The notes beneath the pieces are model-generated. The model made no database searches. It was not told the origin of the DNA and saw only the letters and a list, made by a program, of their open reading frames with translations. The position numbers were made by a program, and so were the translations under genes. DNA of 63,810 nt, the filler included, from Collodictyon triciliatum (lineage: Eukaryota): the NCBI GenBank assembly GCA_043381765.1. It is 3 parts of 3 records of this genome, joined end to end, with 100 filler letters (N's around TTAATTAATTAA, not from the genome) between each part and the next. Parts side by side here need not be neighbours in the genome. Positions count along the whole stretch, not along the records: positions 1 to 23,656 come from JBHJMP010001111.1; 2 more parts are not named here. One strand, given 5' to 3'. This document shows, piece after piece, positions 1,654-63,348 of the stretch. Numbering within the stretch: position 1 is the stretch's first letter; each line of letters starts with the position of its first letter.

Positions 1654-3243
<1,590 letters not shown>

Positions 3244-3913
3244 GATGAGAGCTGCTCTGTTTGGTCTGATTGAAGTTGAAACCTGTAGTGAGTAAAAAAG
3301 AAAAGCAGGCTCGAGTCCGCGGCAGACTGGAGGAAGGGCCAGGAGCGACGAAGGAGCGAAGGGTTTCGTTGATTGTTCTTCTCCTTTGCGCAGAGTAAAA
3401 GAGAGTTGGCTGTGGTTTGTACTATGCCCTTGGATAACCCTTCAGTGAAAGGAAGTGGAGCGCAGCTAAAGATTGCGTCTTGTGCGCACGGCTCACTCAT
3501 GGCGACCTTGAAGGAGTTTCTCGCGCGACTCGGCATGAGAGCGAATCGAGACAGGAAGCAGCACACACCCAGTCTCCTCGCAGCGGTGCTCGGCTGCAGG
3601 GAATTTGGGAAAACAGGGTTTTCGGCGCTTGGATAGTTTGTAGGATAAGTACGGTACCGCTAAGCGGCTGAGGGTGGAGGCAATGACTCGCGCCATCTTT
3701 TAGGAGACAGAGAGGTAAGAAAAAAAAGGAGGCAAAGGCGAAGGCAGTTTTCATCTTTCACTTTATTCGGTTTTCTTTTGATGATACTTTCTTCCAGGGA
3801 TTAACTCGATTTGAAGAGCCAGGAGGAAGAAAAAAGAGAAATCAGAGGCCACTATGTAATGAAAACAACAACATCATTAACAGGCTATATATGCTTTGTA
3901 TAATTATCGAATT

Positions 3914-3986: not shown

Positions 3987-6900
3987 TTAAGCCGGCAGTT
4001 TTTGGTTCCATTGGTCCGCTTTGTCGGTATCCGTCTCAACACCCCAACCATTCTGGTAGCATTCCACAAGAATACGAACGGCCAGTGGATATTTTGGGAC
4101 TCTGCTCCAATCATACTGCTTCATTTCCGCCATCTCTTGCAGAGTCTTGAATGCTTGCGTCGAGCCGTCCATTGCAAGTTGTTTCAAGCCGTCAAAGTAT
4201 TCAGCCTTTCCATCGCCTATTATTCCCCATTTTAGGGACAACAGAGTATCCTTCTCAACACCCCACGCATTTTGATAGCACTCGGCAATCATCAAAACAG
4301 CCTCTGGGTAGCGGTGCCCCCCGTAATCCTTCATCTCAGCCAATTCTCTCAGGACCTTGAATGCTTCTGTCGAGCCTTCCACAGCCAGTTTCTTCACTCT
4401 GGAAAAGGTTTCGGCGTCCCCACCTCCCAGGATTCTCCATCTCAGTGACATGAGAACGTCCTTTTCAACGCCCCATCCATTCTCATAGCATGCAGAAATC
4501 ATAGGAACAGTCTGAGGGTAGCTATATGCTCCGTACTTTTTCATTTCCGCCATATCCTTCAAAATGTTGAAAGCCTTTTTTGAGCCATCCTGGGCAAGTT
4601 GTTGAAGCCTCTCAAAGTTCTCCGCCTTGCCGTACCATTCCACAGCTTTTTCATCATTCTTTTCAGTGCCCCATCCATTTTCGTAGCATTCAATAACAGC
4701 CGCGACAGCTTGCGGGTACTTACATTTTACATACCCATCTTTCATTTCAGCCATTCTTCTCAGGAGGTTGAATGCATCCTTTGACCCTTGCTGCGCTAAT
4801 TGCTTCAATTTATCAAAGTTCTCCGCCTTGCCATACCACTCGATGGCCTTTACGGTGTCTTTTTCGACACCCCATCCATTTTCGAAACATTCAGCAAGAA
4901 TGCCTACACATTGGGGATATTTTGGAATATCAATCCAATCGAGCTTCCTTGTCTCTGCCAGCTCTTTCAAAACATGAAAGGCCTCTCTGGAGCCGAACTG
5001 TGCTAATTGCTTTAATCCATCAAAGTCTAATAATAATTTTAGAACAATGGCTCTCCAGTGTGCAGCCTTTTGACTGTCTTTTTCAACGCCCCATCCATTC
5101 TCAAAGCATTCAGCCATCATCTCAGCCTGGAATATGGTAGTGTTACCATCCTCACAATATTTTGCAAAGTCTTGATCAAAAGAAACAGCGCCGATGGATA
5201 TTAAGAGCAGCTTGTTGTATTGACTCAGTCCAGTGACACTTCTCATTTGAATATTTCCCCCCTCCAATTTTCTAGGACCATCAATTCGTACTCTCTTCAA
5301 ATCTTTGATTCTGCCAGCACCAGTTTTATCCGTCTCATCTCCTTTATCAAAGACAGCTTCAAACAAGTCATCGATATTGCCTCCCTTGATAAGACATGAA
5401 CCTTGAGTGAAGGTCACTTCAACTTCCCGTGTGCTATATGATTGGTTTTCGTTTGATAAATCCCAAATACGAATTTTCTTATCACCACTTACTGAGGCAA
5501 ACCAACTTTCACCATTCGGGCCTTGAACATTACAAACACTGTGAACCCAACCAGCATGATGATCTAATTTTTTAATTTTGTTCCCACTAGAGTAATCAAA
5601 AATATGAATGGCATTATCACTACTTCCTGAGATTAACCACATTTCACCATTAGTTCCTCGAACACTGCATATACTACTGAATTCCCACGTGTGGCCCTCA
5701 AATATCTTGACTTGATTTCCAGAGGCTACATCCCAAATACGTATGGAGTTATCGCCGCTTCCAGATGCTAGCCAATTTTCGCCATTGGGGCCTTCAATAC
5801 TACACACACATTTGACATAATCCGTGTGTCCTTCCAAGGCTTTAGAATGGCTCTCAGCTGCTATGTCCCAAATAAGGATTGTATTGTCATCACTTCCAGA
5901 TGCCAGCCAGTTTTTTCCGCTCCGATCTTGGATACTACAAACACATCTGACAGGTTTTGAGTGCCCTCTCAAAACTTTGACCTCGTTTCCGGTGTTGATG
6001 TCCCAAATGCATATTAAGGTATAGCTACCAAATGCTATCCAGTTTTCTCCACTTGGTCCTTGAATTCTGCAAACACTTAACACATAATCTTCAGAGTCAC
6101 CCTTATATAGTTTTTTAATCAGATTTCCGGTCTTTAAATCCCACAGACACACTGTCGTATCTTCGCTACCAGATACCAGCCAATTCTGTCCATTTGGTCC
6201 TTGAACGCTACAGACACTCCTGATGGTTTTTGTGTGACCTTCCAATTTTTTAATCTCTTCACCAGTGACAAGATTCCAAATGCGAATTGTCTTATCATTG
6301 CCTCCAGTCGCCAACCAGATTTCTCCGTGCGGGCCTCGGACACTACAAACGCTGTGAATGTAGTCGGTATGTCCTTCAAGCACATCTTTACAAAATCCGA
6401 ACTTCACCTGGTTCATGTATGCATGATCGAAAATGCAACCACCCAATTTTGAATTTGTGAAATCCACACCTTCCAAGTTAGCGCCAGTCAAGTTTGCACC
6501 ATCAAAAATCGAATGGCTGAGATTAGCGCGAGGGATTTTGATGTTTGATAGGTCCATCCCACTGAATGATACATTCATAAAGTTTAAAATCGTAATCGCA
6601 TCGGAAGATACCCTGGATTTACTTTCGTCTGTCTTGGAAAAGTTGACTATATGTATCAGGTAAATCATAAAGTCTTCAAGGCTCCATTCTCCCTCTACCC
6701 TCGCGTAATCGATGTTTTCAACGATAAATTTTCTTGCTTCAGTAAAATGAACCGGTTCTTTGTCAACCCCCGTTTTTTTGGAATGGATTGACACGAATCT
6801 GCATGAATTTAAGGTCTTGACATGTGTCCAACCAAGTTTATCGTTGAATTTGTTCCTCATTTCTATCCAAAACATCAATGCCTCTCTGTGTTTCTGAAGG

Positions 6901-9900
6901 TCATTGAATATCTTTTCGATTTCCTCACAACTGTTCCATACACCGGCATTGTCCATACCATACAATTTATTCAGTAAGTCAATAAGGGTCTTGTAAAGAA
7001 AAATGCATATGACATATTGTTTCCTTTCTTTAGCAAATCGAATGATGTTGTCTATTTCGTGCGTATCGTTGATTGACATTAGCGACTTAGTGTCTTCTCT
7101 GATGATGGCAGATTTCTGAAAGCATTCAATTGCCTGTGAAAAACTTTAAAGAAAAAATAAAACGTAAATTTTAAACAATGAGGGTTTCATATTAACAGAG
7201 AACATGAATAAGGTTTTAAAATTCTCATTAATGACGAATATATTATATTTTATTTTTTACTTTTGTAACTTGACATTTGATCGCCCGATGTTTTCAAGAG
7301 AAGTTGCGATATTCACATGATTTTCACCAAGTGTCCTCTTTCCAATATCCAAAGTCTTTGTGTAAGCCACCAAGGCACTCAAATGACTGAGAATAAACAA
7401 TAAAGAAAAGTTATTTTTTTTTAAAAAAAAAAAGGCTAAATTGGTAAAAATCGATATATCAAGATCCAAAATTTACTCTTTCATATCATGATTGATGCCT
7501 CCAATCTTTTCGTAACAATTCACGACTTTCGGGTGGTTCTCTCCGAGTGTAGCAATCAAAATTTCAACGCATTCATTCAAGCATTCCAGTGCCTCGCTTT
7601 TACTGCAACACAATCATGTATTAATTGCCATATTTTCAATTATTATTTCCTTGTAAATTTAAATATCAGCGTCAGCTTATGGAAGGAAATGCTTATAATA
7701 GCTGGGTCCTCCTTACTTTCCTCTCTCCAGGTGAACCTGCGCAATATACTCAATGGATAGTCCGACAGATGCGTGCTTGCCTCCGAAAGATTTCTCGAGT
7801 ATCGATTTTGCTTTTCCATAGCTGTCCATCGATTCTTGATATCTGCTCAGTAAAGAAAATTTTCTCAATAAATCTCACAATACAATAATATCATATCATC
7901 TAGGATAGCAAAAGTCCAGACAATCCTCACTTCTTCTCAGCCAGGCGAACGTGCCCATAGTTCTGATAGCATGTGGCAACAAGAGGGTGCTCATCTCCAA
8001 CCTTCTTTTGTCGAATCTCCATGGACTTCTGGTATTCAGCCATAGCTTCCTCGAGTCTACAGAAACCGTTAATCACTGTTTTTCCTCTTTTCTTCTTTAT
8101 ATTGATACAACTTTTGGTGTTTGTTTGGTAACACATTCACATAATCTGACCCTCATCAAGTTGCATTTGACCACAAGAAATGAGTGCTTACTTTGCTTGC
8201 TTTACATAGACGTCCCCGAAGCGGTCAAGAGATTGAGCAACCTGCAAGTCGCTTTCACCAAGTTGTTCGAGTCTCAAATCCAGTGACTTTTTGTATTCTT
8301 GCAGAGCCTCATCAACTCTGTAAATAACACTTCAGAAATCGGTTCTTTCCTTCCTTTTTTCTTTATTTGAGCTTCGTTTTTCCCTCATTTTTTTAAGCAG
8401 AAAATGATATGTTGGTTCATGGGACGTATCGCTAGAAAATACCTGTTTTGTTGATGGTAAATAAAGCCCAACTCTTCGTGAATCGTAGCTAAACTTGCAC
8501 CGTCCGACTCATCGTGCCCAATCGAATCCAAGCATTTCTTGTAGTATATCATGGATTCAGTCCAACTATGGAATGGTTCCTTTTAGTAAACCAGTGATGA
8601 AAATAATTACGCATTTCTTTCCCTTATTACTATCTCATTTTACATACTTTTGAAGATTCTTGTGAACACGGCCTAGATTCAAGTAATCTGCGACCTTGGC
8701 TTCTGATCGTGTGGACAATTAAAAGAAAAGTGAGAGCATGAATAAATGTAGAAAATGGAAGCTACAGAGAGCAGTTGGCTATGCATAGATTACTAAGTAG
8801 TCACTCACTTTCATTCTCCTGCTTTCCGAGGCGAACATTGAGCACAGATAACAGGAATGAGTTCTCAAACGACTCCAGGAAGAAACCAACAAGCAGCTCC
8901 CCTACTTTATCGAGGGTCTAATCCCCAATGTCATTAGCAATCATACTGTATCTATGCATCGACAAGGGGAAAGAGCAATCATACAGTATCACACGCCTCC
9001 GCATTAGTAAAGTCTGGATTGGACCACGAGGCATACCTTCACCATAGCTCCGTAAGCTTCTATGTAGTTGGCTGCCCCACTTGCGTTGATAGCTCTCCAG
9101 CACGTAAAGAATTCATAGCGATACCGGCCACCAAGCATAATCCCGATTACCTGCGACACAAAAGGAAAATAGGGTCTGTAACATTAAGCTGCATATTTGC
9201 ACGAAAAATACATCCGTGGATGTCGCGTGTAAATTCTTTTTATTTACGTGTTTTTGCTTCATATATTCCACTAGGAGGTTGAACGATTGTCCCTTCCATA
9301 GTTGGTGGCATATCTCAGCAGCGAGCTCTTCGTCAACATCAGCAACCTCCAGGTACTGACTGCACAGCCAATTTCCGTACTCTGCGTGTACCTTGGTCAC
9401 CTCTTGGTCCTCACCAAAGTAGAAACTTTTCGTTGTCTCCATAAGCAGTTGGTGGAAGTACATGTATCTATGAGGTAAAAATATTCATAAACTATGACAA
9501 CACCACCCTCCAGAAAGTATCATATGATACTGTATAAAAAAAATCAGATGCGAATATACCTTCCATTGCGAACAAAAAGTGATTCGATGAGTGTGTAAAA
9601 GAAAGATTTCCTGGCAATGGCGTAAACGTCAATACAGACACAGATTTAGTGGAGAATATTTTGACATGTAGTTAATAGCCTTTCTCGTCTCAAAATAAAT
9701 ACCATTCGCCCACTTCAAATCCTCTTCCAATAATATCCTTCATGTACTTGTCCAAATCTCCCTCGCTTAGACCGATGCGAGATACAAACAAAACCTTCAT
9801 GCAGGTGGACACATAATCCACACCTGCCACATATAAGGTAAGAAAACAACCCATCCCCGCCAAATATTGCACATTTTATATTGTTCTCATTCCGTTTTGA

Positions 9901-11239
9901 AGAAAAGAAAGAGGGGGAAATTGCCTCATTCCATTTTCCTACCTTTTCTGTCAAACTTGACCTTCCAGCGCTGGATGATGAGGGTGTAAAGCTCCACCAC
10001 ACCATTCGTTGATAGCAGTGTGTTCAATTCGTCATCCAGCTTCTCGTATACGCCGAAAACTCGGATTTCATCCAACACGATACGAAGGTAGAGTGGATGA
10101 CCTAAAACAAAAAAGATAAGAAATAGGTGATTTCTGTAATATATATTAATCGTCGCTCTCTGTCTGCAACAATTCCTCACCAGTGTCTTCCAAGTCATCC
10201 AAAATCATCCCCACTTGCTTTTCGTTCAGAGTTTTGTCATAGCGAGTCAAGAAAGACTCGACACCATCCTGAACTTCATCTTTGGTCAACTTGCTGACAG
10301 GGATGAGCTCCAAACCGCTTTCCTGCGCGGACTATTAAAGAAAAAAGGACAAAATTTCACTAGACTCTCTAAAAATAACCATTTGTACTTTTTTTTTTTT
10401 TTTTAATAATTGCGTCGAAATTTTCATAGAATGTTGATTACCTTTGAAGATTCGTGAGTATGAATCGTGGACACAACCATCGCAACGTTGGGTGGTGTTT
10501 CTTTAGGCAGCCAAGTCAGCAAGTGCGGCGCTGGTGTTCCTTGCGATGGGTGGATTTGGTTGATGGCGTCGATGAGAAAGACAAACTTGCCATCCCTTTT
10601 CAAATAAAATCGTCAGTTGACTGCACAGAGATTGTACAGAAAGATACGAGTCTAAAAAATGAGGCACATATGCGAAATACCAGGGGTGAATCTCACGTGT
10701 TCGTATCCTGAATCATACGGACCAATCCCTGAAGTCCCTCTTTCTCGTAATCTGGTATTTGTTCGAATGTTATAATCAAATGCTACCCAAACGGAAAACT
10801 ATCATAAATAAAAGTTACAGACACTATAAAAAACTACGTAAGAATATAATAAACATATATGCCCTTGACTCACCAGCTTCTTGCTTCATGTCCACAGAGC
10901 GACTGCAGTTCACAACCAGAGTCCAGAAGCGTGTTGATATGCTGTGAAAATGTAATATGTGACAAACTTCACAGCACCAGCGTGTTGTCAAATATCAGTG
11001 GAGCCGCAGATAACTTTATTTTTTTTAAAACAACATATGAATGGGACAAATCAGGCAAACCTTTCCACATAATTGCTAAGGTTGGTACACCCAACAAAAT
11101 GGAATAGAACATTCCATCCCGGATGCTTCATTTCACCGACGTCTCTCGCCACAGCGGCCATGACCGATGACTTTCCAATCCCGGACTCCGCCGCAAGAAT
11201 AGCAATTTTGGACTTGTCCGTATCAAGCTGCTTCGTAAC
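3987..11239 (-). CDS. STAND/NLR-like protein: NACHT-type NTPase (NPHP3/TTC41-like) + TPR array + pentapeptide repeats + 7 WD40 + 6 SEL1-like repeats; 5' end lies in the N gap at 11283-11828
   Basis: Walker A exon 11239-11137 (IAILAAESGIGKSSVM); Walker B FVFLIDAINQ...WLPKETPPNVAMVVST (~10600-10442); GHPLYLRIVLDEIRVFG (10101-9943). Further in-phase exons: 10322-10181, 9823-9703, 9610-9560, 9467-9248, 9150-9037, 8917-8809, 8702-8648. TPR exons: 8565-8443, 8317-8192, 8056-7931, 7842-7717, 7602-7477, 7386-7261. Terminal exon 7143-3987 contains the 1030-aa ORF. Exons between 11137 and ~10650 are not fully resolved. Confidence 0.85.
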
Positions 11240-11907
11240 CTGAAAGCAATTACATGAGATGGATATTTTCGTTTTGGTGTTGNNNNNNNNNNNNNNNNNN
11301 NNNNNNNNNNNNNNNNNNNNNNNNNNNNNNNNNNNNNNNNNNNNNNNNNNNNNNNNNNNNNNNNNNNNNNNNNNNNNNNNNNNNNNNNNNNNNNNNNNNN
11401 NNNNNNNNNNNNNNNNNNNNNNNNNNNNNNNNNNNNNNNNNNNNNNNNNNNNNNNNNNNNNNNNNNNNNNNNNNNNNNNNNNNNNNNNNNNNNNNNNNNN
11501 NNNNNNNNNNNNNNNNNNNNNNNNNNNNNNNNNNNNNNNNNNNNNNNNNNNNNNNNNNNNNNNNNNNNNNNNNNNNNNNNNNNNNNNNNNNNNNNNNNNN
11601 NNNNNNNNNNNNNNNNNNNNNNNNNNNNNNNNNNNNNNNNNNNNNNNNNNNNNNNNNNNNNNNNNNNNNNNNNNNNNNNNNNNNNNNNNNNNNNNNNNNN
11701 NNNNNNNNNNNNNNNNNNNNNNNNNNNNNNNNNNNNNNNNNNNNNNNNNNNNNNNNNNNNNNNNNNNNNNNNNNNNNNNNNNNNNNNNNNNNNNNNNNNN
11801 NNNNNNNNNNNNNNNNNNNNNNNNNNNNATATCAAAATCACTTCACAACATATCATGATTTTGCTCATCCCTTGTTTTAAAGTCATGAATTGCTAATACA
11901 ACATTAG

Positions 11908-14900
11908 GCAGCAGTGATGTTGATATACTCCCAGCAAGAAAGCATTTCGATCCCGATAGAAAGGTGGTTCTCTGTCCTATGGCAAGATACCACCGTGTAC
12001 GAAGGGATACACAAAGAATTAGGTGTTGTAGGTAAAGAAACCAAAGGATTCGTGCATTTGTTGTTTTTCCCCCTATTTTTCAACGGCAATATTTGATACA
12101 AATACACATTTATTTCTAAAATAAAATGAAAGTGATGACAACAACTATAACTGCAATCATTTGTTCAACAGAAGTAACCTTCACACCATGGAGTCAAGTT
12201 GACGACCGAACAGCAATAAAAAGCTTAAAGAGATTAGTGACGTTTCGAAAAGCATTTCATGGAAACGAATTCTTACGCAAGTTGGCAGGGCTGGGTAATT
12301 AATTATGTCCTATAAGTTTGGACGCTGGGCTGTCCTAAAAGAAAAATTATTACCTAGGCAAATCCACGTTGATAATTTGCACCGAAGAACAAAAATCAGA
12401 GTGGTCTGCGAATGGGTAATTATGAATAAGTTCCCTGCCACAGAGGTTCAAAGATAAATATCTAAAACGAATAAATGAAATAGAACTATTTTGATAAAGT
12501 GCACAACAAACGTTTTAAACCTTACATGGGCTCAACAACTCCGGGTGGAGGGTCTTTGGAAGGCAGAGAGTTTCGAGCCTGACAAAACACAAATCACAGT
12601 TTCCTGGGAAGTTGAGTATATTGGAGGCATAATAGGAGCCAAAGGTAGGTTTTATACTTTTATCCTTTTACTTAAAAGAAGTCCTCAAATTAAATTGTCT
12701 TCAATGTGCTCTCTTGTAATAAAAAGGAATATAGTCAAAAGTAAAATATTTTTAAGGTATCATAGAAAAACAAATGTTTCGAGATTCAGAGCGTTTCTGC
12801 AAGAGATACTTTGAAAAAGTGAGCAATATTTTGTCAAGAGATGGAGGCTCCTTCCCTGTAATTCAGTTGTCGCAGGGTCTCATAAGTGCAGCGAAACAAT
12901 CAGGTAATAATGAGAATACAAGAGAAAATGATGAGGAATTTGCCGAAATTTTATCCCCAACAAGCGAAACTGGGGATATTAAAGTCCCTCCAGAGTTACC
13001 ATTACCTCTTTCACACGACGAAAACGAGCCCACTATCGCCTCAGTTGTGATTTTTGATGATTCTGTGAATTTTTTTCTCAGTGAAAGTGCAAACAATCCA
13101 TCAGAAGAGGTTATTTTAGTCCCCACAGCATCACAAACTCAAAACTCCAAAGATACCGAGGGAAATTTTTTGGGAAAATCACATACTACAAAAACTGGAT
13201 ATCATAACAGCATAGAAGAAGCCCTCCAAATTAATTTAACAGGCACTTTCTTTGAGGAAGATGTTTGCAGTGCCATCGAATTCGAAAACACAACATCATT
13301 TTCCCTGGTTTCAGATGGAGCTTCAGTTTCAAGTCTCTCTCAAGAGAGTTCTCCTGTCGCAACGCCAATTATGCAATCTAGTAGTTTTGTTGATGGATAT
13401 TATAAAAATACGCAGTTAAATAGCGTCGTTGTATCTGGATTCGAGACTTTACCTCAAGGCCAAAGTGAATCTACCACGGTATAAAGACTTGGAGACTTTT
13501 CTAAAAACAATATAAAAATTAATGTAAAACTATTGATTACAGCTGAACAATATAACAAATATACCTACGTGCAGGAACTTTTTCTTTTTCTTTAAAAAAT
13601 TTTTTTTATCACGGTTGACCCATTTTGAATGAATTTGGGTCCATAGATATTCGTGATTGAACTGAGAAATCAGGAAAACTTGTGGGTGGTACGAAGGAGA
13701 TTCAGCGAATTATGGGCATCTCACTGTCAAGTACATTTTAATTTAATATTTACAATATATAAAAAATACCTTTCATGGGCAGACTTATTTAAAATAAAAA
13801 AGTTACAAAAAATCCAGCAGCTGCCCGAGTTTCCTCGAAAGAAATTTTTTAGCTATTCCGATAAGGATTTCCTTGATAGGCGAAAAATAGAGCTTCAGGG
13901 CTATTTGCAGGTAAGTCCCTTTCGATTTAATTGGCTGCTCTTTACTGTTCATTTACATTTTCGTGAGAAGGTAGTCTATTACTTTGCTTGTATCCATGCA
14001 CAAAATGCTCGAAATAACAAAGTACAAAAAGGAGGTACTTTTATCATCTGAAGCCACGAATGCCAACAGGACTGGTTTTCTTCTGAGATTGTTGCGTATG
14101 GACGACATTCACGAGGCTGTGATGAAAAAGGTAAGCATGTCTTAAGAGTGTTTTTCATAGCATCGGGTCAATATTGAATACATTAATCCACCAAACCTAG
14201 GATGCAAATTTGGTCAAATGCATTCTGTCACATTGTGATGGGAGTTTGCTGGTGTGCAAGCAAAACAGTCTAGGGGAAACCCCTTTGCATATAGCAGCAG
14301 CAGCGGGCTGTATTGACATAGCTAAATTGCTTCTAAAATATGGACCAGATGTTAATTCCAAAGTAAGTGTAAATTGCGCGCTGAAAATGAAAAGTGAAAA
14401 CTGTTACATTCCATAACATATTCTCCATTCATTTATAGGATAGGGTAGAGTGTTGTCCCTTAATATACGCTGCAAGCCATGGGGACATTTTGATGAATCA
14501 GTTGTTGATTCAGTATGGCGCGGTTGTGGATTCCTCAGACCCCAACGGAAACACAGCGTTGCAGGTCACATTTATATCGGAATAATGATTTATATCTGAG
14601 ACACTGAGAACCCGAATATTCAGCGTGATTTTAGATTACAGCTACATTCGATGAAAACACAAATAATGTTAACAGATAGCCTGCTTCTCGGGAAACAAGG
14701 AACTGGTGCAATATCTTGTTGGAGAGTGTGCGAATATAAATTCAAGGAATAAATTTCATGAACCCATTATCTACACTACAGCACGGGCTCTTTCCCTCCT
14801 ATTTCAGGTTCTTAATAGTAAATTAGCCTTTAAAATACGAATATGAATTATTTGCATCAATAACTTATCGTGTAGCCAATTCGAAATATCTCACAGAATC

Positions 14901-17413
14901 CCCCAAAAGAGAGCAAAGAGAATCAATTCCTGTCAGATAGGATACAAGCATATTTGGATATTCTTTACACTCTGCTGAATAGAGGAGTGGAGGTCACAGA
15001 TTTCGTGCACGACTGCCACTTTATGTTAACGAAGTCTGTTTGTCAAAGCTCACCATCACTTCATGAGAAATGGGCTAAAGAAATCGCCAAATTAGAGCTC
15101 TCTATCAGATTGGCTGCTCTAAACTCGGATATGCACCAACTTTGTGAAAATTACGCTGCAAGAAATGAAATGGTTGGACGTCCAGAAAAATTTGTAGAAG
15201 GTAAAAGAAGCTTTTAAAGTCTTTAATTTCCTCACTCTTTATGAAATTTTCATCAATTTATACAAATGTTTTTTTTTGAATTAAAAAAAAAGGAGAAATA
15301 AGGAAATTGCTCACATTATATCCCACCACAGGCCAAGATACGGGGATCCAACGTAGGCTTGGTTCTGAAGAGCTGACTATTCAGAATTGCAGGCTTATCG
15401 ACCGCTTTTTGTTCTCAGAAATAGATAAATTGAGGATGAAATCAGGAGAGATGTACGAATATACGTTGCAGAGGATACAAAATCAAACGTCAATAGACTC
15501 TGGTTGTATGGCACACACATTTGACAAGGAAAGTGCTATTGAGCTAATAAATGATGAAGACGGATACTTTGCACCAGCGGGTATGTCTCTGAAGTTTGAT
15601 GGCAAAGGTATTAGATAAACGAATTTCATCGCTATAATTTTGAAGTAAAAATGTAAAAGGGGGATAAATTAATTGAGTACTTTACGTAATATGTTGCCCT
15701 GATTATTTTTTTTTGTATTAACCACTTTGCTTTTATTTTGATTTTTTTAAGTCACATGCATGAAAATGAATCACCGAGGGGATGCTCTGTTAGCGGTAGC
15801 ATGTTCAGATAAATCGATAAGGATATTCAAAGTGTCTCAAAGAGATGTCCTTGTACAGATGATTCAAGAGAAGATTTGTCCTTGGGGCGTTTTGACAGGT
15901 TATCCATTTTTCTTGTTCTTTTTGAAAAAAAAGAAAGGCCATAAGTGTTTTTTATTTGAATGCGATAATATCTCAACAAATGCTATTGCAAATTTTTGTA
16001 TTTCTTCTTTCAGATCTGGAGTGGTCCTCAGTGTATCCAAAAATGTATGGGATATGCGGCAGCAAAATTTGTTCTGTCGATGTAAATAGTGGAGACTTGA
16101 GGCTTGAATGTGATGTCGGCATCGAACTAAGACTAATAAAAAGCCATCCTTTTATGAGCAATATGTTGATTGTAAGTTGAGTCAAACGAAATGAAGATTT
16201 CAAATAGTCTTTCTCTTCATCCTTTTATTATGGAGAAAATTTAATTTTTTTTTTAAAAAAAATGACTTTGTTGTAACTTTTAGGTCGGTAACTCCCAAAA
16301 TATTGTATCTTTGGTCAATGTTGAGACTGGGAAGATAATACAGAGGTCAGAACTGGCCGGAACCTTGAAATCCGTTTGTTTTGACGTCACAGGGTCTTCC
16401 ATGTATTTGGGTGATGCAAAGGTATAGATGGAATATTATAATTAAAAAAAATTTAAATGCTTTCTCTTTTTCCGGAAAGAATTCATTTCCTTCATTGTAA
16501 AAAAAATAATTAATTGTAATATGTAAGTATTTCTCTAACGAAACAGGGTGTTGTCTACCAAACGAACCTGAATATTAGTGATGGCAGGTGGAGAATTAGA
16601 AGTAAAGCAGTTGTTAGCAAAGGCTATCCTGTTACATCTCTTGGCTTTACCGCGCCATGTCCGTCTCTCGGGTCAAAACTGCCCGTTCTAATGACCCATT
16701 CTGCCGACAACCGCGTGCGTTTATTCAAGTAATGAACTCAAAAAACACACTGTCCTCATTAATTTTCATGATAAGTAACATTTTGTATTCACAGTGTCAT
16801 ATCAAGACCATTGTTTTTGCTTCATCCAACTGTGGAGTATCCGGTTGTTTGTAATAGAATGTACCCGAGTTTGAGTGACGAAATCCTAGTTCAAAGTCAA
16901 TTTTGTCAGGCCCCAACAGCACACGGAGGTATTTCCTAATATCGCTAGTTTTCATTATTATTATTATTAATTTTTTTTTTTTGTTTTTTCTGTGCTAAAT
17001 CACCTTCATCAAAAAGAATATCCAATATTTGAGATACAATAACAAAAGAATTTAATACTGATCGGCGCTTGGTATCATTCGTGCTCTGCATGAATGTGAA
17101 AAGGCAAGTTGTTTGTCATTTCTGGCAGCGAAAACTCCAGTGTATATGTTTATGACGTTGGTAAGGGAATGTGTCTTGAGCTTCCCAATCACATACATCC
17201 GGTTACACAAATAGCCTGGAGTCGCCAGATGAACCAATTGGCCACACTAGGTGCGCTTTCACGATTTCATTTAGTTATATAAAGGCGTGCAATTTCATTC
17301 TTTTGAATGAGTTGTTATGTCAACTATATGATTGAATTGCAATACCCATTCGGTGTTAAACGATGTAAATTATAGATAGCAACAGCAACATCTTTTTCTG
17401 GTTTTACAAGTAA
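11908..17413 (+). CDS. Multidomain protein: VASt (StART-like) lipid-binding domain + low-complexity linker + PX domain + ankyrin repeats + WDR13-like WD40 propeller; first exon probably in the gap
   Basis: VASt-like EVTFTPWSQ...LRVEGLWKAE...TQITVSWEVEY...GIIEKQM. PX-like WVVRRRFSELW...LPEFPRKKFF...FLDRRKIELQGYLQ. ANK GETPLHIAAAAGCIDIAKLLLKYGPDVN. WDR13-like CMAHTFDK...VTCMKMNHRGDALLAVACSDKSI...VISGSENSSVYVYDV...HPVTQIAWS. Stop TAA at 17411-17413. The VASt-linker, linker-PX and ANK-WD40 junctions I checked are in frame. Confidence 0.72.
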
Positions 17414-18009
17414 ATCATCACAAGTGTGTTATCGGCACTCGCTCAGGATTGTTGCATCTTGAAGCCAGAATCTGCAAATATAATCCAACGTGTACATTCA
17501 AATAATACCCTTCTCCTCTCAACGCCAACTCCACATATTCCTTCCTTGCCTTTATTTCAGACTTTTGCTTGTGTTAAGACAAACGGATATGGGAGGGAAT
17601 AAATAAATAAAAAAAAAAAGACCATCAAGTATAAATGTTGTTTAAAATACCATAAATAATATAAGATAGAAAGGAAAGGCGATGAAATCGTAAACACATA
17701 TAATATATATTAAATGAATATACTTGCATAAATATCAGCTATTATATCGAGCTTTGCATTCAATCTAACTCTCAGCTTAATTGGTTATTTACTGGGTTTA
17801 TCGTTTCTATAACTGATTGTAACCCATAGCGGAGTCCTTTTTATTGCCTGCGTTGGAGTCCGATTAAAAAAACAATAGCAGAAGAGAAAAGGATTTTGGT
17901 TAGCCATATTATAATATTCCTTTTTTTTTTCACAATATTAATCGAAAAGACTTTGGGAATGTTTCTTTATTTTAGCACAATACCCTCTCAGCAACGCAGT
18001 ATCAATTTT

Positions 18010-19079
18010 TCAAACATCCAACCAACGGTGGAACTTGACAAACAAAACATAGATTGTCGTGAATATCAAAATGACCACAGTAATCCTAGAAAAATACCAC
18101 TTAACAAAGAATGTTTTTGATGTCGAAGAAAAAATCTTCTAAAAAGGCATGGAAAAAAAGGGTAATATAATAATAATAGAAGATGAAAATAGAGCAAAAA
18201 AATATTTAAAAAAGAAACAAACCACTCTCCATATTATAAAAATATGATATCGTCAACTTACGCAAAAACCAGCCAGGGGAATTCGTCTAAACTACTGAGC
18301 TTGATTGTCCACCCAACCATCACAGTCCAAAACATCCAAATGTAGTTTCTTTGCAATCGAATCAAGCAGCTTTTTTGGAAGGGAAGAAGTCTCGGATGTA
18401 TTCCATAGGCCTCGCCAAGTTTATGCTTCCACGCCAGGTCCGGGTTTGGGGAGTGCGTGATGATTCCTATCCAGCCTGTTTCCACAATCCTGCAGCGACA
18501 CAAAGCAAGCTCATAAAAAGTATACCTTCTCGTCTCCATCACAAGAAACAACACATTCAGCAGTAAAATGACGACAAAGAATGTGTGTGGAATCGTTTCG
18601 CGTGCCAGAGTGAAAGTGACCAAAAGACCAGTCAGGCTGATGGCCCAGTTTGTCACCGTATCAAGGCGCTGTCTATACGCCGCCACTCGGCCAAGCTCTG
18701 CCCTATACAAATGGACAAACGGAGTATGCAGGTTATCGGGTACATCGCCGTCTGGAAGGGCCGGGTTGCTTGCGCGTGGACTCGGCGCTGTCAAAGAGAC
18801 GCTGCGAGACATCGGACTGGCCGAAGGCGAATATGCGACAGGATTCTGCTGCGCGTGAGGTTGACTTTGCTGCTGGGCCATGGACGCGAAGCTGGTTGCA
18901 GAAGCTCCTTCTGGCTCGGTCTGATCGCGCGACAAAAGACTGGACGCTGCATAGGCCTTTGTTGCTTTTGGTGTTGGCTGTGGGCTGTCTTGTTCGTCGT
19001 CCAAGGCAGGCTTTGACAGTTCCGTCAGAATGATGCCTGGTTGCTCATTCCTCGCGCCGGCTTTTGATGATGTGAACAT
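18010..19079 (-). CDS. DUF2270-family integral membrane protein (exons 19079-18262, 18085-18010)
   Basis: HLYRAELGRVAAYRQRLDTVTNWAI...ETRRYTFYE...R...RLQRNYIW matches the DUF2270 pattern as I recall it. Disordered N-terminus; GTAAGT donor; last exon ITVVILIFTTIYVLFVKFHRWLDV*. Confidence 0.8.
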
Positions 19080-19308
19080 ATCACCAAGATTGCAACCTGT
19101 TATGTACCTGACAGGACGAGGAATGAAAAGTGTGCGCGTATGTATGTGAGTGCACAGGCGCTGAGCGGGTACGACGCTGTGGAATGTTTTTTTTTTTTTT
19201 AATTTTGATTGGCAATTGAAAAGTTGTGTATATTTATAAAGGAGCATTATTCGATACGATGAATCATAATTTCTTTCTTTCCATGAACATTCTATTCTTT
19301 TGGTGATT

Positions 19309-19694
19309 ATGACTGATGACCTGATAAACCGGGAGCAATCAATACGAGCATATGGCTCGTGAACAAGGAATACATGGAATATCAAGTCTCCAAAGACCCA
19401 CGCACCATAGTATTCTACGACCTTGAAAAAGCATATGATTATGTGAACCATGAAGCCCTAGAAATCATCTTAAAAAAGCGAGGATTCTGCTCAAAGCTCA
19501 CCACACTTATCAAGAAGCTATACGAGAACGCCGCAACTAGGGTTCTGACTGCACACGGCCCTACCGACATAATCCAGAGACAAAGCGGCGTCTACCAAGG
19601 GTGCCCTCTGGCGCCGCTTCTCTTTAACTTTGTCGCCGACTGCCTTGCAATCCACTTCAGAGACAACAAAGTTCGCAACCAATCATCGTATTGA
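19309..19694 (+). mobile_element. Degenerate non-LTR (LINE) retrotransposon reverse-transcriptase fragment
   Basis: IVFYDLEKAYDYVNH and QSGVYQGCPLAPLLFNFVAD are non-LTR RT motifs. An upstream MTDDLINREQ lies in another frame (deletion/frameshift). The ORF stops before the YADD motif and there is no endonuclease. Confidence 0.85.
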
Positions 19695-20007
19695 AGACAC
19701 GCACAACATTAATTTCTTGGTAGAAACAGCAACACAGGTACATATAAATGCATAAAGTGCTAATTTTTTTTTATTTTTGCTGATGGGCCCGGCGAATCTG
19801 TGCCTTGGGTCTCAGGGAGACGATGGAAATGCCCTGCATAGATATAGTTTAATGCATTGTAAATGCGTTTCAATAATAATAGTAATAATAATGATAATCA
19901 AAATCAAAATTATAATAAGAATAAGAATAGTAATAGTAATAATAATAGTAATAAAACTTTTGGTGGCATTGACTTCTGATTTAGCACAATGAATCATCTA
20001 ACCCATT

Positions 20008-23000
20008 TCAAGCCACGACTTTTTGTCTCCACTCAGCCGCCTTCTCCACGTCTCTCTCGACTCCCCATCCATTCTCATAGCACTCTGCCACTATTGCGAC
20101 CGCCTTAGGATGTTTTGGTGATTGGCCCCATTCCCTCTTCATTTCGGCCATTACTTTCAGCGAACGGAATGCATCTTCCGAACCTTGCTCTGATAGCTCT
20201 CTGAGTTTCTCGAAGCTCTCGGAAGCCCCATACAATTGGATGGCGGTGGTAATGCTTTTTTCGACACCCCATCCATTTTCATAGCATTCGGCTGTCATCG
20301 AGACGGCCTCAGGGTATTTATACTTCTCACCCATTTTTATGCCATACCTTACGAGATCCTCTTTCAACTCTGACGTTTTTTTCAATGCACCAAAAGCTCC
20401 TATCGACCCCTGCTGGGCAAGATGTTTTAATTTTTCAAAGTTTTCTGTTTTTCCGTACCATTCCGCCGCTGCGTTAATGTTGCTCTCAACACCCCACCCA
20501 TGTTCATAGACTTGGGCCATCAACTGGGCCTGGAACTTTGAGAAACGACCCTCCTCACAAAACTTCACAAACTCTTCATTAAACGTGACAGCACCGATGG
20601 ATAGCAGAGTCCTCGCACAAAAATTGCTCAATCCAACTGCACCTTTCATTCTTATATTTCCTCCTTCCAGTTTCCTCCAGCCGGCCACTAGAACTTTCTC
20701 CTCTCCGAAACTAGGATTGGTATCAACCAGGCTTAGTGAGATGCCCGAGGCAGAAGCTTCGGGCACTGGCGAGAAGGCACCAATATTTCCTTTTTTGAGA
20801 ATGTGTCTTCCGCACATATATGTTTGCTCTGCTGTCTGTATGTCATGAAGTTGGCTCTCAGGTACTAAGTGAGATAGACGAATTACTTTATCCTCACTTC
20901 CCGATGCTAACCAGTTTTCTCCGTTCGGGCCTTGGATAGTGCAAATGCTTGTAACTGAACCAGCATGCTTCTGCCACAGTTTTGTTTGAATACCTGTTTC
21001 AACGTCCCAAAGTCTTATTGTTTTATCGCTGCTACCCGATGCTAACCAGTTCTCTCCGTTTGGTCCTTTGACACTGCAAATGCTCCATACAGTGTCGCTA
21101 TGGCCTTCCAATGTTTTTACTTGAATTTTTGTGTCTATATCCCATATAATGATTGTCTTATCCTGGCCTCCAGATGCCAACCAATTTTCCCCTTTTGGTC
21201 CTAGGACGGGGCAAACACAATGGACACCAGGACTTTTATGACCGTAAAGATCTTTGACTTCTTTTGCACCATCAATATCCCATAGCCGAATGATATACTG
21301 ACCAGCAGATGCCAACCATTTTTCGCCGTTTGGACCTTGAACAGGACAAATGCACAAATCAGTTGCGCGACCCTCTAGTGTTTTGAGATGATTTCCTGTG
21401 GCTACGTCCCACAGAAGAATAGTTGCATCAAATCCTGAAGACGCTAGCCATTTCTCTCCGTTGCGACTTTCAATCACACAGACACTTATCGCAGGATTCT
21501 TGCTTCCGTTGAGCCATCTGACCAACTTACCCGTGGTAACATCCCATATCCCAACCTTCTTGTCGTCACTTCCGGATGCCAACCACTTATCTCCATTTGG
21601 CCCTTCAAGTGTACAAATGCTTCTTATCCAGCTAGTATGGCCCTCCAATTTTTTAGTTCGAACCCCTGTTGCCAAGTCCCAAATTCCTATGGTGTAATCT
21701 CGGCTTCCTGACGCCAGCCATTTTTCACCATTTGGTCCTTGAACGTGGCAGACAGATAGAATCTCTCTTTCGTGTCCCTCTAGTTTATCCCTGGCGATGC
21801 CAAACTTGACTCCATTCATATTTGCATCGTCAAAAGTAGAATCTCCAAACGTTGCGTTGGCGAAGTTAACACCGGTTAAGTTAGCACCTGTGAAATTGGA
21901 ACTGCCCATCACTGATTTTGAAAGGTTAGCGTGTGGAATTTTTACATGTGATAAATCCAATCCGTTGAGGGAAACTTTCATAAAATTTAGGAAAGAAATC
22001 GCTTGAGAACCAAGGACGGCCATGCTTTCATCCGTTTTAGTTTGGGCAACTATCATGAGTAAATAGGACGCTACTTGTTCAAAATTCCACTCTTCATCGA
22101 GGCATGCGCCTTTAATATTATCGGAAATGAAAGCCTTGACGTTTGTAAACTCTACTGGCTCTTTGTGTATCCCGATGTTTTTCGAATTGAAAGATATGTA
22201 TTCACAGGAATTCAATGTTCTCTCATGAACAAAACCAAGTTCATTCGAGAATCTATCTCTCATACATGCCCAAAAATCCACTGCTTCCATATCATATTTG
22301 ACGCTTTGGCAAAGTCGTTGGACATTTTCACAGGCTATCCAACAGTTCCAGTTTTCATAGGTCGAAGTTTCTCCATATCTGAGCGCTGCACATTTGTACA
22401 GGTGAATCGCAACCTCTATCTCCTTTTTGTTCTCCATAAACTTAGCTATCTTCACACACAGCATTCCGTCTTCGAGAGACATAAATGTTTTTGTCTCCTT
22501 GCGGATACCAGCCGATTTTCGGAGCATTTCAATCGCAAATGAGTGTCTAGATAAACAATAGGGAAATCAGGAATTTTTTAAAATATTGTTATTTGGAGCC
22601 TTTCTTACAAAATTATTTCTTTTTTATAAAAAAAAAAAACACCTGTTCGACTCGTAATTTAATTTCCCAATTTTCTCAAGCGCGTTCGCATTCTCTACTT
22701 CTTCTAGTTTGAATCCTTTCATTTCAATATGGAAATCCTGAAGTAATCCTTGGTAGCTAAGAACATAAATATTGGCTAATCTTGTCCTCTCGTGTTTTAA
22801 TCCAAGGTTTTCAGTGAATCTTTCTCTCATTTCTTCCCAAAATTCGACACCTTCTTCATATAGCTCGTTTTCCTTACAGTATTCGTCAGTGTTCTCACAA
22901 GCAATCCACGTGTCTATGTTGTCATATGCGGATTCTTCGCTGTATCTTAAAGCAGCGGTCTTAAGAAGCTGAATAACAATATCATGCTCTTTCTTTTGCT

Positions 23001-23615
23001 TCATCAGAGCTGTGGCTCTTTTGATTAGGGAGATGTTTCGTAGACTCATTATGGTCTTTGTTCTTCGTCGAAACTGCGCCGCATTTCGAAGGCAATCCAC
23101 ACACTGTGCAAAACTGAATGGATTTGATATTAGGCATTTTAAATTAGAGAATATACCATCGGCACGTACACAGGCGTTGAAATGTCGCAACAGTTAAACA
23201 AAAAAAAATACGTACCTCTCCAGCTCAAAGTTAATGGTCGCAACGTATTCAAGAGATAATATGTACTCGATGTGATGCTCGCCAAATGTTCTCTTTCTGA
23301 TACTCAGAGTTCTGGTGTAGGCATCAAGTGCTCCTTTAAAGCTAATCACAAATACTAATCTTAAAACTCAAGACCTTACGGGTATCTTCGAGCAAGAAGG
23401 CATATATCTTGATAATCAAGGGATTATAGTTTATTAAACCAACATATCAGATATTAAGATTCAAGAAGAAATCAAGAGCCAAAATTTACTCTTTCATATC
23501 ATGATTGATGCCTCCAATCTTTTCGTAACAATTTACGACTTTCGGGTGGTTCTCTCCGAGTGTAGCAATCAAAATTTCAACGCATTCATTCAAGCATTCC
23601 AGTGCCTCGCTTTTA
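20008..23615 (-). CDS. Paralog of the 3987-11239 gene (TPR + helical module x2 + pentapeptide + 7 WD40 + 3 SEL1-like), 5'-truncated at the contig end
   Basis: Exons 23615-23490 (126 nt), 23341-23216 (126 nt), 23113-22643 (471 nt) and 22546-20008, all joined by phase-2 introns. The 839-aa ORF aligns collinearly with the 1030-aa ORF. Confidence 0.85.
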
Positions 23616-23656
23616 CTGCAACACAATCATGTATTAATTGTCATATTTTCAATTAT

Positions 23657-23756
23657 NNNNNNNNNNNNNNNNNNNNNNNNNNNNNNNNNNNNNNNNNNNN
23701 TTAATTAATTAANNNNNNNNNNNNNNNNNNNNNNNNNNNNNNNNNNNNNNNNNNNN
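23657..23756. other. Artificial contig-join spacer
   Basis: 44 N + TTAATTAATTAA (stops in all six frames) + 44 N = 100 nt. Confidence 0.95.
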
Positions 23757-23853: not shown

Positions 23854-24644
23854 TGGCGCCTAGTTTCTTCTGAACCAAGCAGATGCTGGGATGGATGCAA
23901 TCGGTAATATGACAAGTGCTATATACAATTATGGAATATAATTTTAAAATACTACACAAGCTTAAATGTGTGTTGATTGTGCACAAGTAAAAATTTTAAT
24001 GCATGAAAAATTATACTGATGTGAATGTGAAATTGTTCTATAAGCTGTGCAGAGGTAGACAAGATTGTTCCGGTTTCAAGGATACATTCATTGAATATTT
24101 CATGTGAATCAAGACCACAGACCAATCAAAATAAATCAACAGGCCAACCGCGCGGTAAATCCATGATTTTGGTCACAGCACACACAATGCGAAGAAGGAC
24201 AAAGCCCAGCGCGTCAGGGAAGACTCGCCCACTCGCGAGGACACGCCCATTCAACCGCATCTGTATTCTCCTCACGAGTTCTCTCCTCACCCCAACTATT
24301 CTGTCCAAAAAAAAAAGTTAGAAAAGCAAACTGCCGAGAGCGAAGATTCACTCCAACAAAAATCCTTTCTCGCCCAAACAACCCAGCGAACCTATCTCCC
24401 ACAAATATGTATGTTGCGTTTCTCAAACAAGCGCCAAGCATAGAAAGAAATAGAAAGAAATAGAAAGAAATAGAAAGAAATAGAGAGAAAGAGAGAGAAA
24501 GAGAGAGAAAGAGAGAGAAAGAGAGAGAAAGAGAGAGAAAGAGAGAGAAAAAATTAAGAGAGGAAATAGTCACCTAAAGAAATTACGCCTTAAAACACCG
24601 CCCTTACAGAACCACTTTATACGCATCAAACAACAGTTTGTAAC

Positions 24645-25756
24645 ATGTCTGGACGAGGCGGCCGTGGCGGAGGTTTCGGAGGTGGTCGAGGAGGTGGTTT
24701 TGGAGGTGGTCGAGGTGGAAGCGGAGGAGGCCGTGGCGGCGGCTTTGGAGGCGGTCGAGGAGGAGGCCGCGGAGGATATGGCGGAGGCCGTGGAGGATAT
24801 GGTGGAGGAGGCCGTGATCAGCAGCCGATGGGTCCGCCTGAACAAATCCAAGGTTTTATTTGTTATTTTTTTTTTATTTTTTCATAGTTTCTTTCACGCC
24901 TGAATATATGCGCTACTCTATTTTTTTTTCCCCCTTTGTTGTTTTCTAATAGAACAATCACTTTCGTCCAACTACAGTCTTTACGGTGCGTATTTGAAAC
25001 TGGAGACGTGCCCAACTCACACTCATGTATATCCTACGGGCAAGCTACTAACGGAATGAAACCATAGAACTCGGTGTCTTCTTGCACAACTGCGAAAAGG
25101 ATCTTGTCTTCCGGGTGACGATCCGTCAAGTGCCGCACTTCAACGCCTTTGTCTACCTCGAGAACAAATCATGCATCGGGAAGGTCGACGAGATCTTTGG
25201 GCCCATTAGTGAATTTGTAAGCCCACAGGAACCATTTCACACAGACACATTCACATAGAATAGAATAGAATAGAATAGAATAGAATAGAATAGAATAGAT
25301 ACCATGCAGTATAATTCGCACAGTACATAAGATACGATACACCCCTCCCTTATCGCGCAGTACTTCACGGTCAAGCCGGGCAGCGGAATCAAGGCCGAGT
25401 CCTTCAAGGCGGGCGACCGCGTCTTTGTGGCACCCGAGAAGCTGCTGCCCCTGGAGCGCTTCCTGCCGCAGCCCAAGAAGCCAAAGGCCCCGTCCGGCCC
25501 ACGCGACAAAAGGGGCGGCTTCGGCGGCGGCCGTGGCGGAGGCTTTGGCGGCGGACGCGGAGGCGGCTTCGGAGGAGGTCGTGGAGGCGGCTTCGGTGGT
25601 GGACGCGGAGGCAGCTTTGGCGGCGGACGCGGAGGCGGAGTCTCAAAGGGTGGCTTTGGGGAAGGCCGTGGTGGCTTTGGAGGAGGCCGTGGCGGCAGCG
25701 GAGGCGGCTTTGGAGGAGGTCGTGGCGGAGGCTTTGGAGGAGGTCGCGGCCGATAA
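24645..25756 (+). CDS. GAR1: H/ACA snoRNP subunit GAR1 (exons 24645-24852, 25068-25216, 25361-25756)
   Basis: RGG-rich N- and C-termini flank the core [21 protein letters not shown]...[26 protein letters not shown]...YFTVK...[10 protein letters not shown]. Intron 1 has a TACTAAC branch point. Confidence 0.97.
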
Positions 25757-47282: not shown

Positions 47283-47382
47283 NNNNNNNNNNNNNNNNNN
47301 NNNNNNNNNNNNNNNNNNNNNNNNNNTTAATTAATTAANNNNNNNNNNNNNNNNNNNNNNNNNNNNNNNNNNNNNNNNNNNN
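47283..47382. other. Artificial contig-join spacer
   Basis: 44 N + TTAATTAATTAA + 44 N, identical in design to 23657-23756. Confidence 0.95.
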
Positions 47383-63173: not shown

Positions 63174-63348
63174 GTGCACACGCTCATAAACCCGCACGCC
63201 TTTTAAAAAAAAAGACAAACAAACAAGCGGAAAGATACCCATGGGAATGTACGGGACTGCAAGAGGCGGCGGGGTTTGTTCATTGTATGGGAGAGTGCAC
63301 GAGACAAAAGACACAAACAGTGGAAATAGAAGAAAAAANNNNNNNNNN

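Follow-up and report, generated by a model that had tools for sequence, protein, structure and literature searches.

A putative STAND switch gene with stacked TPR, pentapeptide, WD40 and Sel1-like repeats in Collodictyon triciliatum

The DNA examined here, to which we refer as the window, is a stretch of 63,810 nucleotides, filler included, from the genome assembly of the protist Collodictyon triciliatum (GCA_043381765.1). It contains two related genes on the minus strand, here called gene A and gene B. The domain order in gene A is a NACHT-type NTPase, a helical domain, a TPR_12 array, a pentapeptide β-helix, a seven-bladed WD40 propeller, a flexible linker and a Sel1-like solenoid. The window is of eukaryotic origin, with a GC content of about 38%, numerous microsatellites and short introns of the GT-AG type. 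Two spacers of the form N44-TTAATTAATTAA-N44, located at positions 23657-23756 and 47283-47382, were identical to each other, and 12-mers of this type would be expected only 0.03 times by chance. The spacers look like artificial joins, such that the window consists of three scaffolds and sequences on either side of a join need not be physically linked. Genes A and B are both located on the first scaffold (positions 1-23656). Ordinary gaps were found at 11283-11828 (546 N), 58092-58427 (336 N) and 63339-63348 (10 N).

Gene A was modelled with 19 exons, from position 11239 to a stop codon at 3989-3987, separated by GT-AG introns of 79 to 135 nt. The reading frame was open over 1,781 codons, although the 5′ end is incomplete. 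The TPR exons were taken from a program that scores codon usage and splice sites, whereas the 5′ exons were modelled by hand and checked against P0123, a transcript-derived protein of 2,619 amino acids (aa) from Diphylleia rotans. For exons 2 and 3 there was a second in-frame solution (10941-10914 and 10782-10697), and homology to P0123, P0281 and P0283 did not separate the two alternatives (147 versus 146 bits). Five successive exons were exactly 126 nt long, each encoding one TPR unit of 42 aa and all in phase 2. The terminal exon likewise opened in phase 2, at the same position in the TPR repeat, and carried on with three further degenerate TPR-like units ahead of the pentapeptide block, giving about 6 canonical and 3 degenerate units in total. 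The in-frame splicing of a NACHT domain through TPR exons to the terminal exon, as proposed earlier from the sequence by itself (hereafter the sequence-only reading), was thereby borne out by the 19-exon frame, and also by the alignment to P0123.

In that alignment, the spliced gene A product matched P0123 in one BLAST high-scoring segment pair (HSP), which paired residues 1-1301 with residues 640-1943 at 44.5% identity over 1,306 columns (1,144 bits, 7 gaps). Starting at the P-loop, the HSP covered the helical domain, the TPR array, the linker and the pentapeptide block and reached into the propeller, and thus crossed every modelled junction. Matches to P0129 (39.5% over 1,212 columns), P0281 (37.7% over 1,368 columns) and P0282 (38.9% over 1,264 columns) were similarly long. 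Because the transcript protein P0123 is collinear with gene A in a single HSP, the NACHT, TPR, pentapeptide and WD40 parts lie on one mRNA in the relative, which provides independent mRNA-level support for the one-gene model.

It could be argued that the NACHT-TPR exons and the pentapeptide-WD40-Sel1 open reading frame (ORF) are two adjacent genes that have been merged by the gene model, since the model was, for this organism, built on genomic DNA, and since the terminal ORF is long and lacks introns, unlike the 5′ half. Indeed, there were 18 introns within about 4 kb on the 5′ side (7261-11239) and none in the terminal exon of 3.1 kb (3987-7143), and gene B displayed the same pattern of an intron-rich 5′ side and an intron-free, long terminal exon. 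This difference might reflect a later acquisition of the sensor cassette. However, no in-frame start codon separate from the TPR register precedes the terminal ORF, which begins in the middle of a TPR unit, at the position and phase common to the other TPR exons, and the junction is spanned collinearly in the transcript-derived proteins P0123, P0129, P0281 and P0282. Two adjacent genes are therefore very unlikely. The choice between one mRNA and separate genes, which the sequence-only reading had put forward for checking, thus falls on the side of one mRNA, and the homology evidence indicates that gene A is one gene.

The terminal ORF (P0001, 3987-7145) encodes 1,052 aa, and its pentapeptide repeats, seven WD40 units of about 45 aa each and Sel1-like repeats all passed the Pfam cut-offs, in agreement with the sequence-only reading: 58.8 bits for Pentapeptide (PF00805; cut-off 20.2), 144 bits for WD40 (cut-off 27) and 89 bits for Sel1 (PF08238; cut-off 30.7). 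Leucine-rich repeats (LRRs) were not among the Pfam families listed for P0001 (best 25 of 43), for the corresponding ORF of gene B, P0002 (best 25 of 39), or for the exons. An AlphaFold model of P0001, built from an alignment of 6 rows, had a mean predicted local distance difference test value (pLDDT) of 73.6 and a predicted template modeling score (pTM) of 0.42, at which the packing of domains against each other is unreliable. It contained helical pairs at residues 2-189, a regular strand ladder at 198-250, a confident propeller at 255-562, a low-confidence linker at 565-630 and a helical solenoid at 642-1047, suggesting that the repeat domains fold as predicted. A Foldseek search with the model returned only WD40 propellers, the best of which was 5yzv_B with a template modeling (TM) score of 0.89 for the target. 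For TPR_12 (PF13424), a single exon of 41 aa scanned alone scored 23.8 bits against a cut-off of 30.1, and the TPR_12 region of P0123, with which the TPR exons of gene A are collinear, scored 136.5 bits. The order from NACHT through TPR, pentapeptide and WD40 to Sel1 was thus recovered in full in gene A.

The three motifs quoted in the sequence-only reading were all found on the minus strand: AESGIGKS, FVFLIDAINQ and HPLYLRIVLDEIR (10099-10061). The first two provide a Walker A motif (GIGKS) and a Walker B motif of the pattern hhhhDAxNQ. Single exons matched the Pfam NACHT profile at positions 4-42 (E = 0.058) and then at 82-128 (E = 0.026), in the correct order. The NTPase region of gene A was 50% identical to that of P0123, with exons 5 and 6 being the most conserved part of the gene, and exon 1 was 58% identical to residues 639-698. 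The presence of a NACHT-type STAND NTPase at the head of gene A, as the sequence-only reading had it, is thus backed by both the motifs and the collinear homology to P0123. Furthermore, residues 640-1110 of P0123 retrieved mammalian TEP1 (telomerase protein component 1) with an E-value of 1.7e-8 among 5.8 billion sequences, gene A itself matched TEP1 (P0286) with 62.4 bits over 297 columns, and P0283 passed the cut-off for NPHP3_N (29.3 versus 24.8 bits). These similarities place the gene A NTPase in the STAND clade of TEP1, NWD1, NWD2, TTC41 and NPHP3, which is also called TeTIR-NACHT.

TeTIR is described in the text of a recent preprint as a TIR-like fold with an RWG loop, and the TeTIR domains of human and mouse TEP1 were there reported to cleave NAD+ in dependence on one glutamate (bioRxiv 10.64898/2026.09.21.753143). 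All three relatives of gene A that extend upstream of the NTPase (P0123, P0281 and P0283) had a DUF4062/TeTIR-like domain directly before it; DUF4062 scored 43 bits in both P0123 and P0283, and P0281 was 46% to 59% identical to these two proteins across the region. When aligned with three mammalian TEP1 sequences, the domains of the relatives had the segments SSTFRDM-x-ERD, DLRWG and S-V/I-T-E-x-E in common, the last of which contains the SVTExE glutamate. Since all of the upstream-extending relatives carry such a domain, the effector lost in the gap at the 5′ end of gene A is likely to be DUF4062/TeTIR-like, by analogy.

Gene B is a diverged paralog upstream of gene A on the same strand, as the sequence-only reading had stated: a tblastn search with gene A matched positions 22554-20020 at 41.5% identity over 901 aa (677 bits). 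The gene was in frame for 1,086 aa, comprising 2 TPR exons of 126 nt, a duplicated TPR-tail module, a pentapeptide block, 7 WD40 units and 3 Sel1-like units. The order of repeats in P0002 (20008-22566) was the same as in P0001, and the pentapeptide and Sel1 scores were 38.2 bits (cut-off 20.2) and 51.5 bits (cut-off 30.7), respectively. The module of about 155 aa that has been duplicated in tandem (22643-23113 and 22546-22100) corresponds to an extra exon of 471 nt not present in gene A. The scaffold ends at position 23656, inside the intron before the first modelled exon, and past 23756 the window continues with a different scaffold; the end at 23656, which had been taken as the limit of the gene pair, is followed by the joiner and is not a gene boundary. 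The missing NACHT domain in gene B is thus a limit of the assembly rather than a property of the gene, and gene B probably also encodes a TeTIR-NACHT STAND switch protein.

The protein sequence identity between genes A and B ranged from 39% to 56% domain by domain, with the exception of the first visible TPR exon in gene B, in which 41 of 41 residues were identical to gene A. This exon lies within a near-identical tract of 186 bp that adjoins the scaffold end exactly. The tract may mark the border of a longer, nearly identical stretch that interrupted the assembly, or it may stem from a short gene conversion, from a collapsed repeat or from a mis-join. The location of this tract, together with the lack of the 5′ half of gene B and the 5′ end of gene A in the assembly, could suggest that one copy or even both are not functional genes but decaying relics or chimeras of the assembly, for instance collapsed repeats at scaffold ends or a truncated duplicate. 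We regard this as improbable, because both copies retain long open frames (1,781 and 1,086 codons) across all modelled junctions, the conservation between them follows the domains, and the truncations coincide with assembly breaks rather than with stop codons. At 41% protein identity, synonymous sites in the comparison of gene A with gene B were saturated. The coordinates of all features of the two genes are given in Table 1.

Table 1. Positions of the features of genes A and B and of the breaks in the first scaffold.
Feature	Position	Strand	Basis or remark
Gene A, exon 1 (11239-11061); Walker A P-loop AESGIGKS at 11191-11168; acceptor AG at 11241-11240	11061..11239	-	Weak Pfam NACHT and NPHP3_N matches
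Gene A, exons 2 (10941-10874) and 3 (10751-10697); two in-frame alternatives	10697..10941	-	Splice sites, homology
Gene A, exon 4 (10595-10442); Walker B FVFLIDAINQ at 10585-10556	10442..10595	-	Pfam NACHT profile 82-128; alignment to P0123
Gene A, exons 5 (10331-10181) and 6 (10101-9943); distal NTPase and winged-helix part including GHPLYLRIVLDEIR	9943..10331	-	Alignment to P0123
Gene A, exons 7-11 (9823-9703, 9610-9560, 9467-9248, 9150-9037, 8917-8809); helical domain between NTPase and TPR	8809..9823	-	Gap-free collinearity with P0123 residues 900-1110
Gene A, exons 12-18 (8702-8648, 8565-8443, 8317-8192, 8056-7931, 7842-7717, 7602-7477, 7386-7261); TPR_12-type repeats	7261..8702	-	Exon 14 TPR_12, E 5.3e-5; alignment to P0123 TPR_12 region
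Gene A, start of exon 19 (7143-3987); three degenerate TPR-like units and helical linker	6576..7143	-	Model helices, residues 2-189; conserved in P0123, P0129 and P0124
Gene A, pentapeptide-repeat β-helix, P0001 residues ~191-250	6396..6575	-	Pfam PF00805; strand ladder in model
Gene A, seven-bladed WD40 propeller, P0001 residues ~251-565	5451..6395	-	Pfam; AlphaFold pLDDT 80-93; Foldseek
Gene A, post-propeller segment; residues 565-630 predicted disordered, then PRKLEGGNIQM...SIGAVSF	5136..5450	-	Model and conservation (P0123, P0124, P0128, P0129 and P0186)
Gene A, six Sel1-like units of ~65-73 aa each, motif ECYENGWGVEKD, then stop 3989-3987	3987..5135	-	Pfam PF08238, 97.7 bits for the tail alone
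Scaffold gap of 546 N, removes the 5′ end of gene A	11283..11828	.	Sequence
Gene B (second copy), 5′-truncated; exons 23615-23490, 23341-23216, 23113-22643, 22546-20008	20008..23615	-	
Near-identical tract of 186 bp (intron end, TPR exon, intron start)	23471..23656	-	98.4% identical to gene A 7643-7458
Artificial joiner between scaffolds (N44-TTAATTAATTAA-N44), at which gene B is cut off	23657..23756	.	Sequence

When P0001 was compared by HMMER with the full set of 1.84 billion representative proteins, the two top matches (989 and 915 bits) both carried labels of the Diphylleia rotans transcriptome (EukProt EP00002, Trinity assemblies); P0281, P0282 and P0283 also carried the labels EukProt and Trinity. 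To survey the architecture, 152 proteins, consisting of the 150 best representatives at 50% clustering and two cluster mates, were scored against the regions of gene A. The WD40 propeller was covered by 151 of these proteins, and a pentapeptide block was located directly before the propeller in 44, including proteins from Sorangium, Mycoavidus, a metagenome-assembled genome of Ktedonobacteraceae, and Paramecium. The TPR region was present as well in 5 proteins, all from Diphylleia, whereas the combination of pentapeptide, WD40 and Sel1 repeats was seen only in P0186, likewise from Diphylleia. In this limited sample of 152 proteins, none had all four repeat types together. The pentapeptide-WD40 pair is thus, as judged from these matches, a common and recurrent cassette in bacteria, ciliates and this lineage. 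The four-type stack has so far been seen only in this gene set, and stacks of three types exist in Diphylleia.

The transcripts of Diphylleia rotans encode a NACHT-TPR-pentapeptide-WD40 protein (P0123) and a NACHT-pentapeptide-WD40-Sel1 protein (P0186). The C-terminal part of P0283 contained only TPR repeats. The NACHT domain of P0186 scored 28.4 bits against a cut-off of 26.7, and together with P0128 this protein forms a second NACHT clade in Diphylleia with the same pentapeptide-WD40 cassette. Because this second clade carries it, the sensor cassette is common to different NTPase chassis. The retrieved relatives fell into at least 9 distinct clusters at 90% identity with shuffled C-terminal cassettes. 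Gene A belongs to a multi-member family in Diphylleia rotans whose members differ in their C-terminal cassettes. In a tree of 10 family members, genes A and B were nearest to each other by path but did not form a supported clade, and this tree is compatible with a recent local duplication of the two genes but does not argue for one.

The gene A product itself was not found in the protein collections. Among proteins of similar length, residues 1-260 of P0001 matched only pentapeptide proteins, and a protein atlas search gave only generic WD40 clusters, all of which scored below 0.8. A scan of metagenome contigs with P0001 produced 148 pattern matches, none of which was confirmed. Literature searches found no description of the four-type stack in the library covered: papers combining NACHT, "pentapeptide repeat" and WD40 were all on prokaryotes, as judged by title and abstract, and the search for the protist name together with NACHT gave nothing relevant, matching only work on a plant genus. 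The text of the TeTIR preprint mentions neither "pentapeptide" nor "Diphylleia", although its supplements may list protist members. The claim that the architecture has not been described hence stands for the full stack, which had no counterpart in the database sample, but not for its parts, as sub-stacks occur in Diphylleia and bacteria and the NTPase family has already been described (bioRxiv 10.64898/2026.09.21.753143).

Compared with the TeTIR-NACHT family, gene A is similar in that it belongs to the same NTPase clade, in that its relatives carry, immediately upstream of NACHT, a DUF4062/TeTIR-like domain in which the RWG loop and the glutamate are present, and in that its C-terminal repeats include TPR and WD40. 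In the text of the preprint, which includes a few protist members, the C-termini of the family are either WD40 or TPR (bioRxiv 10.64898/2026.09.21.753143), whereas gene A has both, with a pentapeptide β-helix in between and a Sel1-like solenoid after them. For gene A, whose own 5′ end lies in the gap, a TeTIR domain is predicted from the relatives. Among the Diphylleia proteins, P0123 was collinear with gene A from the P-loop into WD40 but had about three propellers and no Sel1 repeats, whereas P0186 resembled gene A in the NACHT domain, the pentapeptide block, the WD40 repeats, the post-propeller motif and the Sel1-like units but belonged to another NACHT clade and lacked a region matching the TPR part of gene A. 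None of P0123, P0129, P0124, P0201, P0128 and P0186 united all four repeat types, and with identities to gene A of only 27% to 45% the Diphylleia relatives are not demonstrated orthologs.

The bacterial proteins P0208 (Sorangium cellulosum) and P0162 (Mycoavidus cysteinexigens), both of the NACHT-pentapeptide-WD40 type, and the ciliate proteins P0133 and P0134 (Paramecium) had a pentapeptide block directly before WD40, as in gene A. P0162 was named a NACHT-domain protein by NCBI, and P0208 weakly matched NACHT antiphage models. Unlike gene A, the bacterial and ciliate proteins had no TPR_12 array, Sel1 tail or spliceosomal introns, and their NTPases may be of a clade other than that of TEP1 and NPHP3. 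Fungal NACHT-WD40 proteins of the HET-E/NWD type and the NLRs of animals and plants follow a tripartite STAND logic and form lineage-specific multigene families with variable repeat ends. Gene A differs from these proteins in that it stacks several repeat types behind an NTPase of a different clade, and it is unlike a strict NLR (NACHT or NB-ARC plus LRR) in its listed Pfam families.

Taken together, we propose, with a probability of about 0.6, that gene A encodes a large, cytosolic and receptor-like STAND switch protein of the TEP1/NWD/NPHP3 (TeTIR-NACHT) family. According to this model, the C-terminal repeats would keep the NTPase off until a ligand binds, perhaps a protein, which might come from viruses, bacteria or prey. 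Exchange of the nucleotide would then cause the NACHT modules to oligomerize, thereby gathering the N-terminal effectors, probably TeTIR NADases, which would be activated by proximity and would cleave NAD+, leading to cell death or signaling. Several repeat types in series would offer several independent binding surfaces on one switch. A role in immunity or nonself recognition would be plausible.

Several observations weigh against this interpretation. The single-exon NACHT scores of 13.7 and 14.8 bits were below the cut-off of 26.7, so that the NACHT assignment of gene A rests on collinear homology, and the PADLOC defence NACHT models matched none of P0001, P0123, P0283 and P0186; a WD40-containing model (HEAT-ARM_XIII) matched P0001 and P0123 only, a TPR model gave a weak match to P0123 (17.4 bits), and P0283 and P0186 had no matches at all. 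Gene A is known from genomic sequence alone, and the transcripts of the relatives are Trinity assemblies, which can be chimeric. In the tree of 10 family members, only 1 of 7 inner branches was supported (P0128 and P0186, 99/98). The N-terminal domain was not found, in that no exons resembling the N-terminal parts of eight relatives were seen anywhere in the window at E-values of up to 1. The sequence-only reading had placed a hidden effector in the 11283-11828 gap, and the gap does cut off the 5′ end of gene A, but as drawn it is too short for the N-terminus of the relatives: the 546 Ns and the approximately 650 bp to the next ORFs would not accommodate about 640 aa unless the gap size has been underestimated. 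The steps beyond domain order, family and multigene modular character are drawn from the family, and ligand binding and oligomerization in gene A are proposals.

Animal members of the NTPase clade also have non-immune roles: NPHP3 acts in cilia, and TEP1 is part of vault particles and of telomerase. The main rival to a receptor-like switch is accordingly a structural or housekeeping scaffold, in which the TPR, WD40 and Sel1 surfaces would assemble a ciliary, cytoskeletal or ribonucleoprotein complex and the NTPase would act as an assembly switch. The clade that gene A shares with TEP1 and NPHP3 is consistent with this alternative, as is the generic nature of WD40, TPR and Sel1 repeats as protein-interaction scaffolds, and P0123, the closest full-length relative, has CH domains (44.5 bits) that could point to a cytoskeletal scaffold. 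We consider the scaffold role rather unlikely, because the relatives form many distinct clusters with shuffled C-terminal cassettes, the two copies within 20 kb are only 41.5% identical, and the NADase domain of the relatives has kept its RWG loop and the glutamate at the catalytic position, which fits an effector better than a passive scaffold.

Gene A is a new architectural variant inside the TeTIR-NACHT family, with TPR, pentapeptide, WD40 and Sel1 repeats behind the NTPase of that family. A more speculative scenario, which we put forward tentatively and consider doubtful, is that this deep-branching, collodictyonid-like protist lineage has an NLR-like repertoire in which a constant TeTIR NADase-NACHT-TPR chassis is combined with swappable sensors, such as pentapeptide-WD40, extra propellers and Sel1. 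Gene conversion would then hold the chassis near-identical among paralogs, whereas the sensors would diverge, and the 98.4% identical tract at the break of the gene B scaffold, as compared with 39% to 56% identity downstream, would be the edge of the homogenized region.

The TEP1/NWD/NPHP3 group has only just been recognized as a STAND family with a TIR-like NADase effector, with members described, as far as the preprint text goes, as ending in either WD40 or TPR repeats. The gene A stack and its relatives with shuffled ends sit outside animals, fungi and plants, and widen the known design space of NLR-like switches. They offer a tractable case for studying the gating of STAND proteins with multiple sensors, and for asking whether NACHT receptors coupled to an NADase are of ancient origin in eukaryotes.

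A few other features were noted in the window. A gene for a DUF2270 membrane protein was located between genes A and B (18261-19079, minus strand, 123 bits in Pfam), the exact product of which was not found in the protein collection, and ORF pieces at 2245-3441 (minus strand) resembled isopentenyl-diphosphate isomerase by eye. An Rfam scan of the window gave no matches. The second scaffold starts with a GC-rich (51%) region of low complexity at 24600-25900, with PPPKPPPR repeats of proline, lysine and arginine in one frame and alanine-serine runs in others. It also contains a single open frame of 2,591 aa on the minus strand (35471-43246), for which the Pfam matches were limited to Sel1 repeats (67.5 bits) and, weakly, TPR_27. 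BLAST detected no similarity between its product, a giant orphan Sel1-rich protein, and the Sel1 tail of gene A. Finally, ORF pieces at 56887-58500 (plus strand) resembled, by eye, a PRP38-type splicing factor.

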